This document shows, piece by piece, positions 2,761 through 55,506 of a DNA stretch of 64,000 nucleotides. Location of the stretch: assembly GCA_040954595.2 (NCBI GenBank), contig CM082594.2, positions 11,796,985 to 11,860,984 on the forward strand, written 5' to 3'. A program made the position numbers and the translations under genes. How positions within the stretch are numbered: position 1 is the first letter of the stretch; the number at the start of each line of letters is the position of its first letter. Below the pieces are notes generated by a model. It was not told where the DNA came from. It worked only from the letters and a program-made list of their open reading frames with translations, and did no database searches. The stretch comes from Balanoglossus misakiensis (taxonomy: Eukaryota > Animalia > Hemichordata).

Positions 2761-3538
2761 GATTCAGACCCATAGTCTTTTTAAATACCCCTTTGTGTCC
2801 ATTGCTATAATTCTTTATTCTGTGGCTTTTCGGTTGACACGGCCTCTGTGTTCAGTGAACAAAAAAACAAGACTTTCGATCACGCGTTGAATATACTGGC
2901 ATACCAGACAGGGTTATCCACAGTGCCAAAATTGTGAGGAATAAGTTCGTTGGCGGGAAAAATACATTTCCGCTTGATGGGTTGACGTGTTATTTTCGCG
3001 CTGGAACCGCACTCGAAATGGACTTCCGAAGTCTAATGAAGACATGAAACGTACACTTCTAAAATAAATCTCTGAAACGTACATGTAAACTTGTGTGGTG
3101 TTGCATCCTTTATGCTCTCTACCTCGATATTTGCACACACACGTAATAGGCTTTGACACGACATGAACGTGAGTGGGTGAATATACCCATCGATACAAAC
3201 GTAAACTGTACAGTGCCCTCTAAACAACATTACCACCAGTGATTTTTATTACTTGAGGTTTAGATAGGCAGCCATATTATGAACTAATCGGTTATCTGCG
3301 GGTTCCAACAGATCAGTCACGCATTTTTTCCGTCTCTCTCCTTGAGCAGTTGATGAGCTAGCTGAGCATCGACAAAACTAGCCTGCAAAAATACCTGTAC
3401 CATACAAAAAAATAATATTGAGAGAAGAATGATCATAGATTCATTAACATTGTTGCTCAACTAAATCGCCAAACAAACATTTACATCAATCGGTGAATTA
3501 ATCAAGAAATAAAATAAAATATATATATAAATATAGGG

Positions 3539-4476: not shown

Positions 4477-7400
4477 ATGGAATCAGAATGGGATAGCAGG
4501 GAACAGCATTTCTTGGATGCCGTAAGGGAAAACATCGTAAGTACTACAACTTGTGTAGCTCCCCCCCCCCCCCCAATTTTGTAAACAATAATTTGTTGTC
4601 GTTCGGTCCGCATTTGAGAACGTCATGCATCGCAGGCCAGGGCTGGGGAGGAACGCATCGCGTATATTTTTAGGGAGGGTGGTGTTCTTCTGTTACTTGA
4701 TATTCGAGAAATAGCAAGCAAAATGTATTAATATTTTTGTTTGGACTTGGAGTGCACCGGGGATCGTACTAATAATATTCATTCGAAAAATTGGAAAGTG
4801 GTATCTGTACACCACGCAAGATGATTTGCCAGGTTTATTACGAAATTCACCACCCTCCGCCCCTATCAATGACGACATGCAACCATGGCACGTCGATTTC
4901 ATGATGTAACTTCTCGTCAAAGTGAGACTTCGACCCCAGGCAGACATCTAGTTATTTTATTGTAACAAACAAAAATATGATCAAAATGTTCATGCACAAC
5001 TGAATATTTTATTCCAGATAATAATTTAATATTATATAAATAAAAATCACCTTTTATCTGGTATTCCCAATCCACTTGATATTTCCAGTCACACAAATTG
5101 TCCTAAATATAGCAAATTTCTGACAAATTCCAGACGGTGGAATTACCATGTGTAACACACTTCATTGTACCTTTGGACCGACCATTTGCATAAAATGTTA
5201 ATTTCTGAGTGAGTCATTTCTTTATACCAGAAACTGAGAAAGCCATGAAATCAGCCACACTTTCACATCTCTTCATATTTCCTTGTTTGAAATACAATCA
5301 CGTTTGTATTTTTGTAAATTTCACACGTCAACAATGAATGTAATTGTTAAGCTGATATCACACTAGCTACTTAAATTATAATACAAATCTTGAGAATATC
5401 ATAGCCAAGGTACTGTACATGTTCATTCTGAAATCTAGTTTGCTATATAACACTGGCTTTGTCTTTTATTTTTCCCCATAACATAAAAATTCAAGGAGTC
5501 ACAAATGATTACTGTAGGGGTCAGGCCAAGGCCATTGTCAAGGTTGTGTATGTTGTCATACATGGTATCAAAGTGTGCCTTTTAAAACTTCCTTTTGTAC
5601 TGACACTATTCATATTGGCTGGATCTCTAAAGTGCAATTTATATAATTGATTTCAGTTGGAGTTTAATTAATAATTGCCTTGGTGTTGGCAGATAAATGC
5701 ATGGAAATCAGTTGCAACATAAATTTAGTGAGAGACAATGCCATAAAACTGTTGTTGTTTTTTACACAACAGCAACGGATGAAACGAAACTTGTCTCAGA
5801 CAATTCAGCCATATCAAAATGCACGTAGAGTGTCTGTACAACCAAAGCTGCCTGTGTGCAAGGTAACAGCAGGTGAATTAGATAATACATGTTTATAAAT
5901 GTACTACAGACAGGTGAATGACTTCACTGTAAAGTACGTCACTCACTGTGTTATCTCCATGTGGTACCTTGTCCCTTTAACCCTTTCACCTCTCATTTTG
6001 CGAGATGGGTCCAACCCTACCCATGAAAACAATAGAGGTAGAACAAACAGTGGGTGGTGAAAGGGTATCAGTGGGAGGTCAACAATGAAGGTCACCTTGC
6101 TATCAAAATCATGTGGACAGACCAAAGTCTGAAAAGCACGCAGGAAACTCTTAATAAGCCAAATTGATATAGATGAGGCAAAATGGGCAAATCTCAAAGG
6201 GTTTTTCATCATTTGCCTGTGACCTCGTGGTTAATTTAATTTAGAATGTTATCAAAAGTGAATGGTATTATCTTAATTAGTGCTTGCCTGGTAACAAGCT
6301 TATTATGCAATGAAGATTAGGGAAATACTAGTGCTCCCTACCAAAGGGCTGAGATAAGTACATTGTACCCATATCCTTTAAAATCATAATTATGCATTAA
6401 CCATTGGCTAAATATTACATGTAGTAGTCTGATTAAAGAACCAAATCCAGTATTAGCAGATGATGGACTGTAATCCTAAGATCAGGGGGTCATTGTCCTG
6501 GGCCACACCAGACAGTGAACACAGTTCATGGAGTATTAATTTCAAATTAAAAAAGTGGAAAATATCTTCTTGTCAATAATGTCAAAGATGACAGTTTTCA
6601 CTTGGAGTCAATCGTGCATTAGTGGTGTTTGGTCAACCCAGGCGCTCAAGCATCTATTCAAGTTTAATCAGGTACACATGTACAAATGTATAGACACATA
6701 GAGAACTTCAAGCATCAGAAATATTTGAATACAATGTACGTTTGCTCCTGACTCTCTCACAACTCCTTCACACTTGTCACATGGCTACTCAAGTGCCTTT
6801 AATATCCTTCTATGCCAGGCTCAGCTGGGTAGGCAACCTACTATAGTTTCATAAGCAATGCTATGCTGGTTCTCAGAACACATTTCATGCATACCCAAAC
6901 CAGCAAAGTAGTTTAACATACTTGTTGATTGAGCAAGGTCATGTCAGCAGGGTTCCAGGCCAAATTGGTGTGTTGCATAATGTCTATATGGTTATGTCTG
7001 ACATACTGGTACAAATAAGACCGTGCAGAAGTTAGGTGACAAAATCAATCAATGTGGGTATTAAAGATGTAATTTTCTCATCATCATGTTTTGCTTTTTA
7101 TCTTTTCTAGATATCGGGATTGTTGTTGACAAGCCTGTACATCTTGTCATATTTTGTGATTTGCCGGTTTAGAAGACGGACTGAGAAAGAGGATTGTTAC
7201 ACAAGTAAGCAATCATTTATTTTAATTTGTGAGACACATCTGATGTTGTGTCCACAAATTTCAGCAGATGACTTCCCTGTGAATTGTGGGAGATAAAATG
7301 AACCAAGGCATGTGATGGAGTCGTTTGACTATAAGTCTGCATCCTATCCATGGTGTTAATGATGGTTAGCACGAAAGTGTGCGTGGAGCCTAGGCCAAGA

Positions 7401-15479: not shown

Positions 15480-17293
15480 TCATTGTTCCTTTTGTTTACA
15501 ATTAAGAGACGCTACAAGACATCGTAACAGAGCCACACCAATCGGAATCAAGCTACTTTTCAGGCAACCGTAAACATAGAAAAGCAGTATGTTGTCCTGT
15601 GAGAGAGGAATCATCTCGACAGCCCTGCAATATACAAGACTGCAAAGTGCAGCTATGAGGCTTGCGAGAAAGTCCATCCCACTTCGGAGATTCTCTGGAA
15701 ACCGACTTTCAAGGCATGTCAGTATTACGCCCAGGCCTAGTACACACCCAGCATCCCGTGACAATGCATAGAATGGCGTTGTGTCCAGGTGGATATATTC
15801 AGACTTGACACACCATTTCATGGCCAGTGGCACACTCCATCCTGGGTCTAGGCCAAGGATTTGCAGCACAAAAAACAGAGCTACTGCAGAGGACACAATG
15901 AAGAAACTACCAATAATATAGGTGTGTAATTTCAAATCATCCAATGGAACTTGGTTGCATACAATTGCAAGTAAGACACCTGAAAGAACAGAAAAAGATA
16001 ATTTAGAACAGAAAAAGATAATTTCAAAGAGAATATTACAATAAGCTGCTTCTCAAATACAAAAAAATAATATTGGTAATTATTTTACTCTAATTTGGTG
16101 GATCTAAGAGCCTACAAGATAAGCATGCAGCTACCCATGCTCTGTTTGTGTGTATTCTACATTACCACATAATGATTGCAAGTCAGGAAACAATGCCAAA
16201 TGCAGCCAGACCAATACATGTATTCCATTTTTTTGTCAAATATTCTTTTGGTTGGACACTCCCTCACGCTATAGAGCGCCCTCAAACAGCAGATCAGTCT
16301 ATGTGGCAGGGTGGATAATATACTTACCCACAATTAAGCCAAGAAGTACTTGGTGAGGAAAGTGGGTAGAAATAAACAAACGTGATGTTGCAACCATCAC
16401 CATGACAACAGTAAACAGTATCCATGGCAGCACCGATTTTATCCTGCTACCAGAAGCCACTGTTTTAGTGGATACACTGTTAAATGCAGTTACCATGATA
16501 AACCATACAGCTGCTGTCACCATTGCATGACCGGAAGGGCTTCCTGTAGGATAGATTGAAAATAACATTTTAATAAAGTTTGAATGGTCTGATTGTTTTG
16601 CTGCATCTTGTCATATTATTGCAATAAAAGAAAAAAAGTTGTTGACAAACTTAAATGAATTGAATTGTCGCATTACCTGGCCCAGTCTCACAGGTCAGTG
16701 AAAACTGATGTATATCAGGCACATTGTCTTTGTCATAAATGGATGTCTCATGGATCCACCAGTATGGCCGTTGACCATACAACAACCTGTCAAAAGTTAC
16801 AAAATTTCACTGTTTAAATGTAGGTGTTAAAGTGATGACACTCCAATTTTGTAAAATTATCTTAAAATTGAAAACAATAGCTTAATTAAATAAATATTTC
16901 AGGAACAATATGTTTGGAATCTGTACAACAAAACAACAAACAATATGGCTTCCCAACACGGTTGACACTTCATCACTTCCCCATACTTGTAGCAATCGAC
17001 AAGGGGTGAAATCTGTTTGAATGTACAATATTTGAGATGGATGCAGGATGTATAACTGAAACTCTCTTCGCTTACCATTTTAAGATTGCATTCAACCATT
17101 CTGCGAAGGCTGCCACCAATAACACCCTTTGACCCGAGCTGTGACTGAAACAATACACCAACGGAAAATAGATCAGGAAGGCGTTCCTGGGGTCTCCCAT
17201 GTGAGACATGAACAGCATGCAATCTTCATAACGTGCGAAACTGTTCTGCAGAAGCTGGATGATACTGACTTCATGGGCGTGCAGCAGGTCCAT
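15480..17293 (-). CDS. G6PC: Glucose-6-phosphatase catalytic subunit (PAP2 superfamily), 4 coding exons, ~347 aa
   Basis: Exons 17293-17076, 16786-16677, 16543-16328, 15979-15480 join in frame (1044 nt). All three PAP2 motifs are present: KWLLYGQRP(YWW), CETGPGSPSGHAM, SRLFISTHFPHQV. The N-terminus is MDLLH..., and the C-terminal KQKEQ fits a KxKxx ER-retrieval signal. The paralog (G6PC1/2/3) cannot be assigned. Confidence 0.95.
15985..16024. repeat. Perfect 20-bp tandem duplication in the last G6PC intron
   Basis: agaacagaaaaagataattt occurs twice in tandem, within the minus-strand polypyrimidine tract. Confidence 0.85.
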
Positions 17294-25400: not shown

Positions 25401-28400
25401 ACAAGACACAATTTTAAATGACAAAGCCACCTTCACTCAGCCCACCACCATCAATTACTGAAAACAAGAAAAATTTGAGCCAGTTTTGACGGTATTGTGG
25501 AATCATATTTGCCATTTTTGACTGTTAATTTTTCATGTGTGATATTTTTTACCTTGACATACAGCTCAGCAGAAGAAAGAAAGAAATTTTACCAAAAGCA
25601 AGAAGCAGATGAAGACATTGCCAGATTTAGAGAATATAAACAACAGCAAAATTGGTTGGAAGCAGAAACAAAAAGAAAGGTACATGTACAAACAGAAAAG
25701 TCTTAATGAAAGTCAATTTACAACTTAACAAGTAGTGAAATCACTATCTGATACATGTAAAAAAATTATCACCTACTTCTATCCTTGACAAAATTATCCT
25801 AAGGCGCTAAATCAATACATTAAACAATTGCATATTATTTTAAAAATACTCTAAGCAGATTTTGCACTTTGACAGTGTTGAATCATTGAATCATATAACT
25901 TTTCAAAAAAATATATCAATATTTTATCTGTTGAATCATTTAGCTAATGACTTGGAATGAATTCTAATCTTTTACACAGGATTTAATGATGTTGAAATCT
26001 TACCAACCATTTGGTAAACCAGGTGGAGGAGCACCAGCTGACAATTACAAACGGACTAAAAATATAGCACAGATGGATTTCGATGGAAAGAATGAGGTAT
26101 GATTACTCATAATATGTTTATGTAAGTTTCTGATATTGTGGTACAGAAACATGTAGTACATGTGGGTGGTAATTCATGGGATTTCAGTTTGGATGGTTTC
26201 AGACAATTGGTCAACTTTGTATGATGGAACCGTCTGTGCTTGGAGCAAGGAACTAAGGAACTTGCAATCATGATACTATATCCTGCAGCCAAAATAGCAT
26301 CCATGTCAAACAAAGGTTTAATTCTCACACTGGAGTTTAATTAAATAATAACACATGATAGCGAGGGCAATATCACAATTTGTTGCCTGCCCAAGGGTTG
26401 GTGACCATGACCGAAATATTGATGATGCCCGAGCCGAAGGCGAGGGCATCATCAATATTTCGGTCATGGTCACCAGCCCGAGGGCAGGCAACAAATTGTG
26501 ATATTGCCCTCGCTATCATGTGTTATTTATTTTATTACACCGAACATTCACACAGCATACAAGACAATATCACACAGTCAGGATTTATATTACCACAACA
26601 GTTTAATGGCCAAACACGAAACAACAATAAACCAACAATAAACGTACTGGGCATATTTCACAAAAGATAAATACTGTCATTGTTTTTGTCCAAGAAAAAT
26701 GTTAAAATTTCCTCCTGTGATCGTTGCACCTGCAAACAAGGATGCTGCAGCTGATTTGGGTGCGGGTATATTAATATTTGGCTGGGCCACACCACTGAAA
26801 GCAGGCTGCGAAATGATGGATGAAAGTGGTGAGCGATGTGCTTGTTGTGGGGGGCTTGATGTTGCGATGGCTGCACCGTGGTCACCAGTTTCGTCAGCAG
26901 CAGATGGTGTCATTGTTGCGGATGAAAGGGTTTCTGCCATCAATTTCTTCTGCTGGATTGACGTATCCCTGACATAGGAGGAGATGCTCCCTTCGTTTCG
27001 ATGGCGGCTCACACTCATGATGTGCCTATTGTTGAAGCCGGATTCGCTAAGAAGTGTGATGGACGTGGCACGAATACAATGATTTGTGTAGCGTTGACTT
27101 AATTCTGCTGCTGCAGATATAGTGGCCATCATCGCCGATAATGTATTTTTGCCGAGTGGTTTGTTCTCGTACCACAGCGCGTCGTCACTACTGTAGTTAT
27201 CGCGTGGTCGTTGAAATAGTGCGTCGCATTTACGGTTTATCTTCGAAATATACAGTTCGTAGGTACGAACGGGGCACCGAGATAAATTGGTGGGGTTGGC
27301 ATACATGATTCCGCCCGACACACCATCGTCATCATATTGGTGGTTTTTTGTCACCTCGCTCCCAACTTGGATCACGTACTTATTCCCACGGTCGTCCGTG
27401 TTAACCTGAAAGTTTTCAGGACGGAGGTCACGCTGCCCTTCTCTACCACGGCGACAAAAATACAACATGATATCGAACCATACCTTGTGCAGAAGTAAAG
27501 TTGCGTCGGTATTCGAGCGACTGAAGTAGGTGGCTAGTTTAGCGAGATCGCCCGGGAGTATGGCCGGTTTGTGTACAACATTTCCTTTGCCCTGGCTTTT
27601 CAGTCGCTTGCAAACTGCACTAAACATCTTCCGGCTATTGGAAAACTCATCGCCATCAACTATATCGAAATTTCGGCGCATTGGTGGCTGATTGAAAAAT
27701 CGCTGAATGCCGTATCGAAGTGATTGAAGAGACTTGTTCGTATATAGTTCTCCTTTCTGAGTTCGCACTTCAGCGTAGAATGTAGTCAGGGCTGCGTCCA
27801 GAGTCGTCGCTGTGAAGGTCTCGATCTCCCGGTGACTATATCCGTACTTGGCACTGAGATAATTTCGGAAAACGGATACTGCATTGTTGGTCGCTACTCT
27901 CGTGTTTTTGCTGTCCATTTGAAGTAAAATATCATCCAGTTGAGCTGGTGTCAAATCAGCGTGTCGTTTTGAAGCCATAGTGGTGGTGCGTTAAAGGGAA
28001 AGGGTTTGTTGTGAACGACAATTTGTTGATGCGCAGAAATGGTGCGCAGAACACAAAAACAACCCAGCGGGCTATATCAGCGCACGCGACAGGGCTTTAT
28101 CAACTCTAGCCATGTTATATCACTTTTTTCTCTATGTCACGTGAGCGCGTCTCAGCCAATCACGAATACGACATAATACGTGAGGTGTAATAAAAATTCT
28201 TAAGATTAAATGACTGCCAAGCAAGCATTAGCAAGCACTGGTTAGGAAGGTCAGTGTCATATCACTGGCATATTTCGAGTGATTAAGATTCACATGAGCG
28301 TATAGTATGTTCAACTCGCATAGACACGTGGCACTGGCAGATAATTTCACTGATTTTACATTGAGGTGTTTACATTCCATTTGTTTGCAACCAAGGTTAC

Positions 28401-29689
28401 TTTTTATGTAAACAAGGTTTATGCCCTGTCACCCACCAGTACTTAGAGAAGTCAGTTATTGACGACTCCTATCAACTTGGCATTCTATTGGTCTATAAAT
28501 TGACTTCTCAGACTTGACAGGGACGCTAAAGTTGTCAATGGTGTACATGTATCTACATTGCTGAATGACCATGTTTTGAATGGAGAGCTACTTGGTGTCC
28601 ACTCTGTTTTGTTTCTTATTGTGAAGGCTTAGGGACGCAGGAAATTTGGTGAACATTTTTAGTAGCTGGAACATTTTGAAATAAAGCTGTGCAGATTTAC
28701 ATGTATGATGTACTTATTCTTGCAGACGATTTCAACTTATGAAAATCCTAATGTAAGTGAAAAAAAACACAGAATTGCATGACGCCAAAATAAAAATATG
28801 TGTGGTTCACATAACGTGGTGTTCAATATTACATTTTGGAGGGCCTGTGATCAGGCTGTGGTTTAAAGTGGGGTCTGCTGAGTACAAGAAACACACATAT
28901 TTTCTTCGCCTAAATGCATGATGGTATAACTTAATAAAAAAATTAACAGCCACGATAATTCAAAGCATGAATTTTTACGATTGCTAATTTGAAAATATCT
29001 TCCCAATACTGACCCCTGTCCAAAATGTAATCTTTCTACTTGGATGTTTGGTTTCATGTATGATGTACTTATTCTTGCAGATGATTTCAACTTATAACAA
29101 TCGTAATGTAAGTGAGAAAAACAGAATAAAATAATTTTAAACAAAAAAACAAACAAACAAACAAACAAACAGAACAGATTTCCTGAAGTTTTTTTATGTT
29201 TTATTGAAAGTAACAAACAAAAGACCCCCAAACTGCAACTTCACCATAAAAATTCACTTGTGAATCATATCCTAAATAAATATAATGACATCTGAAATTG
29301 GGAATCGATCACAAATCGAGCAATTCATGTTTTCTGTGAGAATGATAATCAACATCTGCTTTGAAAAGTGATACAGGCAGCCATTGTTACCTAATACAGA
29401 GTGATGCTTTTCGTGTTCTGTATGATGTAGTGGTTGTGGTGTTGGTGGTGGTGGTGGTGGTTACCATAGCAGACATGGGATAGTGGTGATTTTTTAGTGA
29501 TGACTGATGTGTTGCTATGGGATGGTGTTGGGTTGCTGTTCCAGTGCTAGGATACAGTGTTAAAGCAACTGCAAGAAAAATGGGAAAATTATCAACAAAT
29601 CTGTCAGTTAGAAGCTGTAGCTGTGTCATCTGAAATTGGTGAATCTTTTGCATATACAATTTTGGTTTTCTCTGTACTTCTATTGATGT

Positions 29690-55021: not shown

Positions 55022-55506
55022 TGTATGTATGTATGTATGTATGTATGTATGTATGTATGTATGTATGTATGTATGTATGTATGTATGTATGTATGTATGT
55101 ATGTATGTATGTATGTATGTATGTATGTATGTATGTATGTATGTATGTATGTACATGTATGTATGTATGTATGTATGTATGTATGTATGTATGTATGTAT
55201 GTATGTATGTATGTATGTATGTATGTATGTATGTATGTATGTATGTATGTATGTATGTATGTATGCATGCATGCATGTACCGGTATGTATGTATGTATGT
55301 ATGTATGTATGTATGTATGTATGTATGTATGTATGTATGTATGTATGTATGTATGTATGTATGTATGTATGTATGTATGTATGTATGTATGTATGTATGT
55401 ATGTATGTACATGTATGTATGTATGTATGTATGTATGTATGTATGTATGTATGTATGTATGTATGTATGTATGTATGTATGTATGTACCCGGTATGCATG
55501 CATGTA
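55022..55506. repeat. ~480-bp (TGTA)n microsatellite with recurring interruptions
   Basis: Directly visible; explains the six MYVC/HTYI pseudo-ORFs. Confidence 0.99.

Follow-up and report, generated by a model that had tools for sequence, protein, structure and literature searches.

A strand-marked terminal hairpin in a hemichordate Crypton: a possible folded single-strand recombination site

The window analysed here, a stretch of 64,000 nucleotides (nt) from Balanoglossus misakiensis (Hemichordata; assembly GCA_040954595.2, contig CM082594.2, positions 11,796,985 to 11,860,984 of the forward strand), holds a DNA transposon with a single gene, for a DUF3504 tyrosine recombinase, and with a 181-nt hairpin at one of its ends. 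What does a long and nearly perfect palindrome, present at one end only, do for an element that encodes a tyrosine recombinase? By analogy with the attC sites of integrons, we lean, at slightly better than even confidence, towards the hairpin being a site that the element's own enzyme would recombine as a folded single strand, exchanging one strand only.

The hairpin is the only long inverted repeat of the window (27 inverted pairs compared), its two 89-nt arms (26347-26435 and 26439-26527) being 94% identical and separated by a loop of 3 nt. An earlier description made from the letters of the window (the sequence-only reading) gave an 84/89 base pair (bp) stem, and direct comparison of the arms bears this out, with exactly five mismatches: A26393·A26481, A26394·G26480, T26398·G26476, G26431·A26443 and A26432·G26442. 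The tip described there, CCC-GA-GCC-GAA-GGC-GA-GGG, is present at 26428-26446, and its second mismatch site, CCC-AA-GGG (26390-26397) facing CCC-GA-GGG (26477-26484), was correct in both position and sequence. Overlooked were the T26398·G26476 pair, which is a wobble on the plus strand and A·C on the minus strand, and the completion of the stem by the joined element ends. Folded as DNA, the plus strand, which is the non-coding strand of the element, reaches −106.3 kcal/mol (z = −27.5), with none of 200 shuffled sequences folding equally well; the minus strand reaches −104.6 kcal/mol. Independent contigs cover both hairpin arms at high depth, and no variant is present at 26393 or 26398 in the contigs covering the hairpin, to which the two arms map ambiguously. 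With the same ambiguity of mapping, an A>G change at 26503 occurs in about 40-45% of the summed contig depth in X1 and in X2; it would pair T with G on the plus strand, or be compensated should the other arm change as well.

The boundaries of the element were read from contigs of three runs of one sample. A 1,592-nt contig joins 26337 to 28191 and omits 1,853 nt, with three letters (TAA) that fit on either side, and as it differs from the window by 13 letters and 2 gaps it is another haplotype, without the insertion. Contigs from other copies stop before 26341 (14 and 16 of them) and, at the far end, behind 28193 (8 and 1), and these shared break points, together with the empty site, place the element at 26341-28193 (Table 1). 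The hairpin is therefore terminal, as had been proposed, with its start 6 nt in from the element end at 26341. Extra spacer letters are absent from the empty site. In related families the target flank varies (TAA or TAT) while the element end is constant, the flank before the hairpin end being TA(A/T) in 12 of 16 distinct insertions. Since the flank varies against a fixed far end, the TAA is a microhomology and not a target-site duplication (TSD), which rules out the TAA duplication that is typical of PIF/Harbinger elements. The element has no end-to-end repeat, and lacks long terminal inverted repeats (TIRs) as well as long terminal repeats (LTRs). Summed X2 contig depth, which is not a copy number, is 94 in the flanks, about 95-910 in bins across the gene and 49,000-89,000 at the two ends, and points to many gene-less copies that keep both element ends. 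Two doubts that the sequence-only reading had itself raised are dispelled by these data: an assembly fold-back artefact is ruled out by the independent contigs over both arms and by the existence of the empty-site contig, and an independent miniature inverted-repeat transposable element is ruled out in that hairpin and gene are both missing from the empty site, the same design following the gene in 11 other families. Near the element lies a 70-nt direct repeat (28697-28766 and 29052-29121, 91% identical, 355 nt apart), and an X2 contig that runs from 29050 back to 28700 suggests a tandem unit of ~350 nt, variable in number and adjoining the element.

Joining the two ends would complete the stem. 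The last 10 nt of the far end recur exactly, in inverted orientation, at the foot of the hairpin, some 190 nt in from the opposite element end, and these two places (28184-28193 and 26532-26541) hold the only exact matches of the 10-mer in the window. When the ends are joined in silico the stem lengthens across the joint, to −114.6 kcal/mol against −108.5 kcal/mol for the integrated form. For the relatives we took the first 12 nt in the register of a conserved TGATTGG, presumably a CCAAT promoter box, in 27 loci of 15 families; the register was chosen from the data, so this test is not blind. In 8 of the 15 families the far-end box finds a partner with 10-12 of 12 positions paired, either at the foot of the hairpin or shortly before the contig stops, and in five of these eight at most 1 of 300 shuffles is as good (16 of 300 for this window alone). 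Additional to the eight is L033, with an exact box match of 14 nt, and in L040 both box mismatches are G·T on the non-coding strand. In all four families that are complete at both ends the joined strand has a net excess of two bases next to the joint (in L009 the cut is ambiguous by one base).

The tip itself is shared more widely. A profile scan of metagenome contigs gave at least 307 confirmed relatives, of which the best 80 were used, falling into 44 families at 80% nucleotide identity. These were searched without regard to orientation or loop, for any of the 12 self-mismatching dinucleotides flanking a short stem-loop, at least 10 of the 12 outer positions being paired. The only dinucleotide to come up is TC on the coding strand, equivalent to GA/GA on the non-coding strand, and it comes up in 11 of the 44 families and in this window; in 59,606 nt of upstream sequence the same search gives no case, nor does it in 20 rounds of shuffling. 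Read on the non-coding strand, the loops of these 12 families are GAA (six), GCA (four) or GTTA (two), each with a C-G closing pair, and the inner stems are of eight different kinds. Of the 120 cells for the ten pairs beyond the GA/GA, 119 are Watson-Crick (partly by selection), and 32 pair types occur; between families the arms are 40% identical and the proteins have a median identity of 41% (range 30-75%). An alignment across DUF3504 families had been proposed as a check, and its outcome agrees with what was expected, the stems varying while the GA/GA and the C-G-closed G...A loop persist, neither of them varying freely.

The same asymmetry extends along the stem. In arm-to-arm alignments of 16 hairpins, the 12 tip families and four with damaged tips, the non-coding strand has 88 G·A against 1 T·C (59 against 1 without the tip), and 29 of the 42 2x2 loops are GA/GA and none is TC/TC. 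The mismatch sites recur about 3-4, 22-25 and 41-45 pairs from the loop; in this copy the middle one is fully paired, yet C-GA is retained there on one arm. The second mismatch site of this hairpin corresponds to the third conserved position, which is GA/GA in L003, GC/AA in L020, L028, L044 and L073, and AA/GA here. The observation that this site is one transition away from GA/GA stands as to position; decay from that motif need not hold, and AA/GA may be a tolerated variant.

Further hairpins and stem-loops of this kind were seen in the relatives. A second hairpin with a GA/GA tip adjoins the first in L028 (2153-2588, same orientation) and in L022 (2927-3258, opposite orientation), and another lies 2.3 kb downstream in L077 (3061-3165, opposite orientation); these are probably gene-less elements stacked at or near the ends of other elements. 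A small coding-strand GA/GA stem-loop falls within the recombinase match of L003 (about 4510-4535) and L004 (about 3290-3312), the sole one of that orientation inside the gene with 12/12 outer pairs. In L014, about 480-650 nt past the gene match, a palindromic insert with ~49-nt arms abuts a tip-deleted Crypton hairpin. In phage contigs the tip 15-mer directly follows a second GAA mini-hairpin motif, a shared context that comes without the long stem (loci L084, L123, L132, L134, L152, L156, L161, L178 and L188) and is possibly a single-strand priming or promoter signal.

The recombinase is encoded by the only long open reading frame (ORF) of the element, which ends 150 nt from the hairpin. Its protein matches the Pfam domain DUF3504 (E = 7.5e-15, 55.8 bits against a cut-off of 29.7) and, also above cut-off, Phage_integrase (E = 3.2e-6), and the Pfam scan finds in it no HUH domain, reverse transcriptase or extra C-terminal domain. 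Across 30 aligned sequences (the query with 29 of the 120 listed homologues) no change occurs at R176, R177, K211, H300 or R303, and conservation is at least 90% at H326 and Y335. The protein thus keeps the R-H-R-Y residues of an active element, unlike the domesticated ZMYM/QRICH1 genes, the catalytic arginine being assigned by analogy. An AlphaFold model (mean predicted local distance difference test score 80.2) has its best match in Cre (Z = 18.3, root-mean-square deviation (rmsd) 4.7, 280 residues aligned), the values for the integron integrase 2a3v being Z = 13.1, rmsd 5.7 and 268 residues. Among the homologues listed the nearest is from Ptychodera flava (79% identity), and others carry the names KIAA1958-like, KCTD1_15 and ZMYM2-like. 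Viral contigs hold no relative of the recombinase, and the prokaryote genomes gave a single weak match, L081, on a 1.4-kb contig, which was excluded from the family counts as a likely contaminant. By the features tested, namely the sole DUF3504 gene and its residues, discrete ends, and the absence of a TSD and of long TIRs or LTRs, the element belongs to CryptonA.

Table 1. Features of the element and its target in the window (positions count from the first letter of the window)
Feature	Position	Strand	Basis or remark
Complete CryptonA-type DNA transposon, 1,853 nt	26341..28193	- (gene strand)	Contig of the empty site, and break points of other copies
Host TAA at the target, same as the last 3 nt of the far end	26338..26340	+	Empty site has TAA only once
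First bases of the hairpin end	26341..26346	+	Joined strand two bases longer than its partner here, next to the joint
Terminal hairpin, 181 nt, 84/89 bp	26347..26527	+	Predicted best fold on the non-coding (+) strand
Second mismatch site, 5' arm: CCC-AA-GGG (26390-26397), AA (26393-94) opposite GA (26480-81), and T26398·G26476 wobble	26390..26398	+	
Tip: C(GAA)G triloop, 3-bp stem, tandem GA/GA (26431-32 with 26442-43), CCC-GA-GCC-GAA-GGC-GA-GGG	26428..26446	+	Sequence
Second mismatch site, 3' arm: CCC-GA-GGG (26477-26484)	26476..26484	+	Sequence
Two putative poly(A)-like hexamers: ATTAAA (26607-26602) and AATAAA (26536-26531), the latter overlapping the inner box	26531..26607	-	Sequence
Inner box at the hairpin foot, an exact match, inverted, to the far end's last 10 nt	26532..26541	+	Exact-match search
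Intronless DUF3504 tyrosine recombinase ORF, 433 amino acids	26677..27978	-	R176/R177, K211, H300, R303, H326 and Y335 present
Conserved TGATTGG, likely a CCAAT promoter box, starting 31 nt after the first base of the element 5' end	28156..28162	-	Motif and spacing recur in several relatives
Far-end box, element 5' end in gene orientation; inferred cut after A28193	28184..28193	+	Would pair with the inner box after end joining

How might these parts work together? All the loops observed fit the GNA/GNNA class of DNA mini-hairpins, and do so on one strand only. Mini-hairpins with such loops, among them GTTA, reach an exceptional stability in DNA that their RNA counterparts fall well short of, and single-stranded DNA-binding protein (SSB) binds to them poorly (PMC13037366), while tandem GA-AG stacks take a stable sheared form (PMC8163305). 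In attC only the folded bottom strand is exchanged, the junction being resolved by replication (PMC2727003, PMC2811028), and only three nucleotides, at the cut, are conserved (PMC2727003); in CTXphi no special recombinase domain is needed (PMC4792948). From the attC-like layout and the one-strand loop class we infer a single strand exchange on the folded non-coding strand. This strand would fold while transiently single-stranded, nucleated by the C(GNA)G mini-hairpin, and sheared G·A pairs would let it tolerate interruptions that read TC/TC on the other strand. The recombinase would cut the non-coding strand after ...TAA at both ends and join these into a single-strand circle, whose complete site would consist of the far-end box, the base of the stem and the two extra bases. 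The circle would then enter a duplex target, itself cut after TA(A/T), by a single strand exchange, with replication resolving the junction, and gene-less copies that retain only the two ends would be mobilised in trans. At a distance of 60-100 bp from the inferred cut, the GA/GA sites are more likely to aid folding, stability or accessory binding (with a period of about 20 bp) than to mark the cut directly. We hold it to be an even chance that CryptonA elements are eukaryotic, self-mobile counterparts of integron cassettes, whose recombinase would peel off a one-strand circle, read the folded junction by its sheared G·A pairs and mini-hairpin, pair target TA(A/T) with the box and exchange a single strand. 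Animals would then have a single-strand tyrosine-recombinase pathway, in the lineage from which the ZMYM, QRICH1 and KCTD1 genes arose.

A number of observations weigh against recombination on the folded strand. There is no strand bias between G·T and A·C (20 against 19), and isolated mismatches give 15 against 8 (p = 0.21). The proposal of the sequence-only reading that selection acts on the folded plus strand as DNA is supported in part, by the GA/GA and the C-G-closed G...A loop, which are kept on the non-coding strand in 12 families, and not by the G·T wobbles. The strict tip is found in just 9 of the 22 families that have at least 700 nt downstream. Among the remaining 13, hairpins of the same design, damaged or with the tip deleted, are seen in L002, L006, L014, L016 and L038; L001 shows a degenerate palindrome of 207 nt, the arms of L005 and L007 measure only 30 nt, no long downstream palindrome is present in L017, L037, L054 and L069, and L041 has the box, but most of its contigs stop soon past it. 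Three close protein relatives, L001, L007 and L017 (51-52%), are without the canonical tip. Moreover, the families share descent and the counts are not independent events. Pairing of the box fails in 7 of the 15 families, two of them on contigs that are too short, and no circle junction occurs among the joints in the mapped contigs. The terminal structure of attC has no part in strand choice (PMC2727003), and with the GA/GA sites far from the cut their exact role is the least certain step of the mechanism. The energy model prefers the coding strand in several relatives, and the nearest-neighbour energies of the two strands differ here by just 1.7 kcal/mol. The recombinase model is nearer to Cre than to the integron integrase, and the duplex junction, read from its sequence, shows a loose inverted symmetry and could serve as an ordinary site.

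The near-equal fold energies, the likeness to Cre and the loose dyad symmetry of the junction all speak for a double-stranded circle, the standing Crypton model (Goodwin, as cited in the text available for PMC3212892 and PMC13465315), in which two strand exchanges would take place, the palindrome would be an accessory site, as a cruciform or for extra recombinase, and G·A would merely stabilise one arm. We consider this unlikely: it does not account for the exact inverted repeat of the far end at the foot of the hairpin, for the constancy of the 2-nt excess or for a GA/GA orientation that is invariant in 12 of 12 families, and the empty site lacks extra spacer letters. Improbable, to our mind, is a priming or replication signal, where the hairpin would protect a single-strand circle and recruit a primase or polymerase for the second strand, recombination taking place on the duplex. 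Similar mini-hairpins do occur at the priming sites of phages G4, St-1 and alpha3, with poor binding of SSB (PMC13037366), the GA/GA sites are distant from the cut, and the tip 15-mer recurs in viral contigs; but the pairing of end and foot is unaccounted for and none of the 123 viral matches sits on a long stem (best 13/30 pairs). For the tip alone, such a signal is compatible with recombination on the folded strand.

Somewhat more improbable is that the pattern is a by-product of mismatch repair or arm-to-arm copying on a folded strand, which would remove ordinary mismatches and overlook sheared G·A. Near-perfect stems that are unrelated between families suggest homogenisation of the arms, and the present copy is fully paired at the usual second site with C-GA still on one arm. 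Against this, the mismatch positions are fixed and the loop is also constrained. The same strand must in any case still fold, and the box is left unexplained. Least probable of those considered is a role in RNA, as a 3' mRNA hairpin or an antisense transcript forming tandem G·A pairs. Tandem G·A pairs are stable in RNA too, the coding strand of this copy reads C-UUCG-G at the tip, and Rfam gives microRNA-like matches, all of them sub-threshold. UUCG is not conserved, the coding-strand loops being TTC with other neighbours, TGC or TAAC, and with loop letters varying in this way among families a UUCG tetraloop is ruled out; the best Rfam match to a microRNA precursor (51.5 bits) falls below the gathering score of 75. 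The RNA counterparts of GNA triloops and GTTA are far less stable than these DNA mini-hairpin loops (PMC13037366), the element has no reverse transcriptase, and the pairing of end and foot is again unexplained. The sequence-only reading had argued against an mRNA structure from the poly(A) signals, and two poly(A)-like hexamers do precede the hairpin in gene orientation, but the argument is weak in that the last AATAAA overlaps the box and is missing there in L003 and L044.

Elsewhere in the window, an open frame at 15480-16052 (minus strand), without a Pfam match, resembles the last exon of what we take to be a glucose-6-phosphatase-like membrane protein, and a long TGTA microsatellite of 115 copies occupies 55022-55487.

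The element resembles the animal CryptonA (PMC3212892), the Glomhoppers (PMC13465315) and the Eulor5/Eulor6 relics (PMC5753468) in its single DUF3504 gene, absence of an extra C-terminal domain, lack of a TSD, microhomology with the target and abundant gene-less derivatives. Its distinguishing features beside these described Cryptons are the 181-nt one-sided hairpin, the split inverted box of 10-12 nt and the strand-specific mismatch code. In the text available of these papers, Kojima and Jurka (2011) report no terminal repeats in animal Cryptons (PMC3212892), the Glomhopper paper gives poorly conserved ends in fungi and a circle model (PMC13465315), and Eulor5/6 are classed as Cryptons with no mention of a hairpin (PMC5753468); the strings 'palindrom' and 'stem' are absent from the first two, 'hairpin' and 'palindrom' from the third, and the available parts of PMC12810828 and PMC9004415 hold nothing on Crypton ends. 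Our literature search, with supplements, Repbase, Dfam and subscription journals outside its coverage, found no Crypton terminal hairpin or single-strand route.

In the literature found, movement of animal Cryptons is not demonstrated and their ends are described as featureless. With the ends of the present copy exactly placed, its target known in the empty state, its enzyme intact and its substrate predicted, the mechanism is directly testable. If recombination on the folded strand is correct, animal nuclei would also host the kind of tyrosine-recombinase reaction on a single strand that integrons and CTXphi use, many gene-less hairpin repeats of animal genomes could be classified by a structural signature, and the enzyme would be a compact integrase with a minimal target requirement.

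The 'peel-and-paste' IS200/IS605 family and Helitrons share with this element end hairpins on one strand, no TSD and insertion beside a short AT-rich motif. Their hairpins are short and their enzymes are of the HUH type instead of tyrosine recombinases, whereas the Pfam scan finds no HUH domain here. In CTXphi and XerCD a folded single strand mimics a duplex site and is used by tyrosine recombinases without a special single-strand domain (PMC4792948), as may be the case here; CTXphi is a single-stranded phage that relies on host enzymes and one site, in contrast to a chromosomal transposon with its own enzyme. Compared with integron attC and IntI, for which the mechanism is proven where ours is inferred, the protein is Cre-like, the element brings a recombinase of its own along with a conserved CCAAT-like box, and its targets are scattered TA(A/T) sites and not attI. 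Its hairpin is 181 nt long (57-142 nt in attC), its asymmetry lies in GA/GA and GNA loops where attC has a conserved extrahelical G and T, and its ends are TAA or TAT and not the conserved AAC/GTT triplets of the R boxes. Common to both, as far as the available text of the integron papers goes (PMC2727003, PMC2811028, PMC4792948), are a hairpin placed 3' of the gene, a folded strand that is the non-coding one, base pairing completed by the other end of the cassette, unpaired bases at the cut and about three nucleotides in common with the target.

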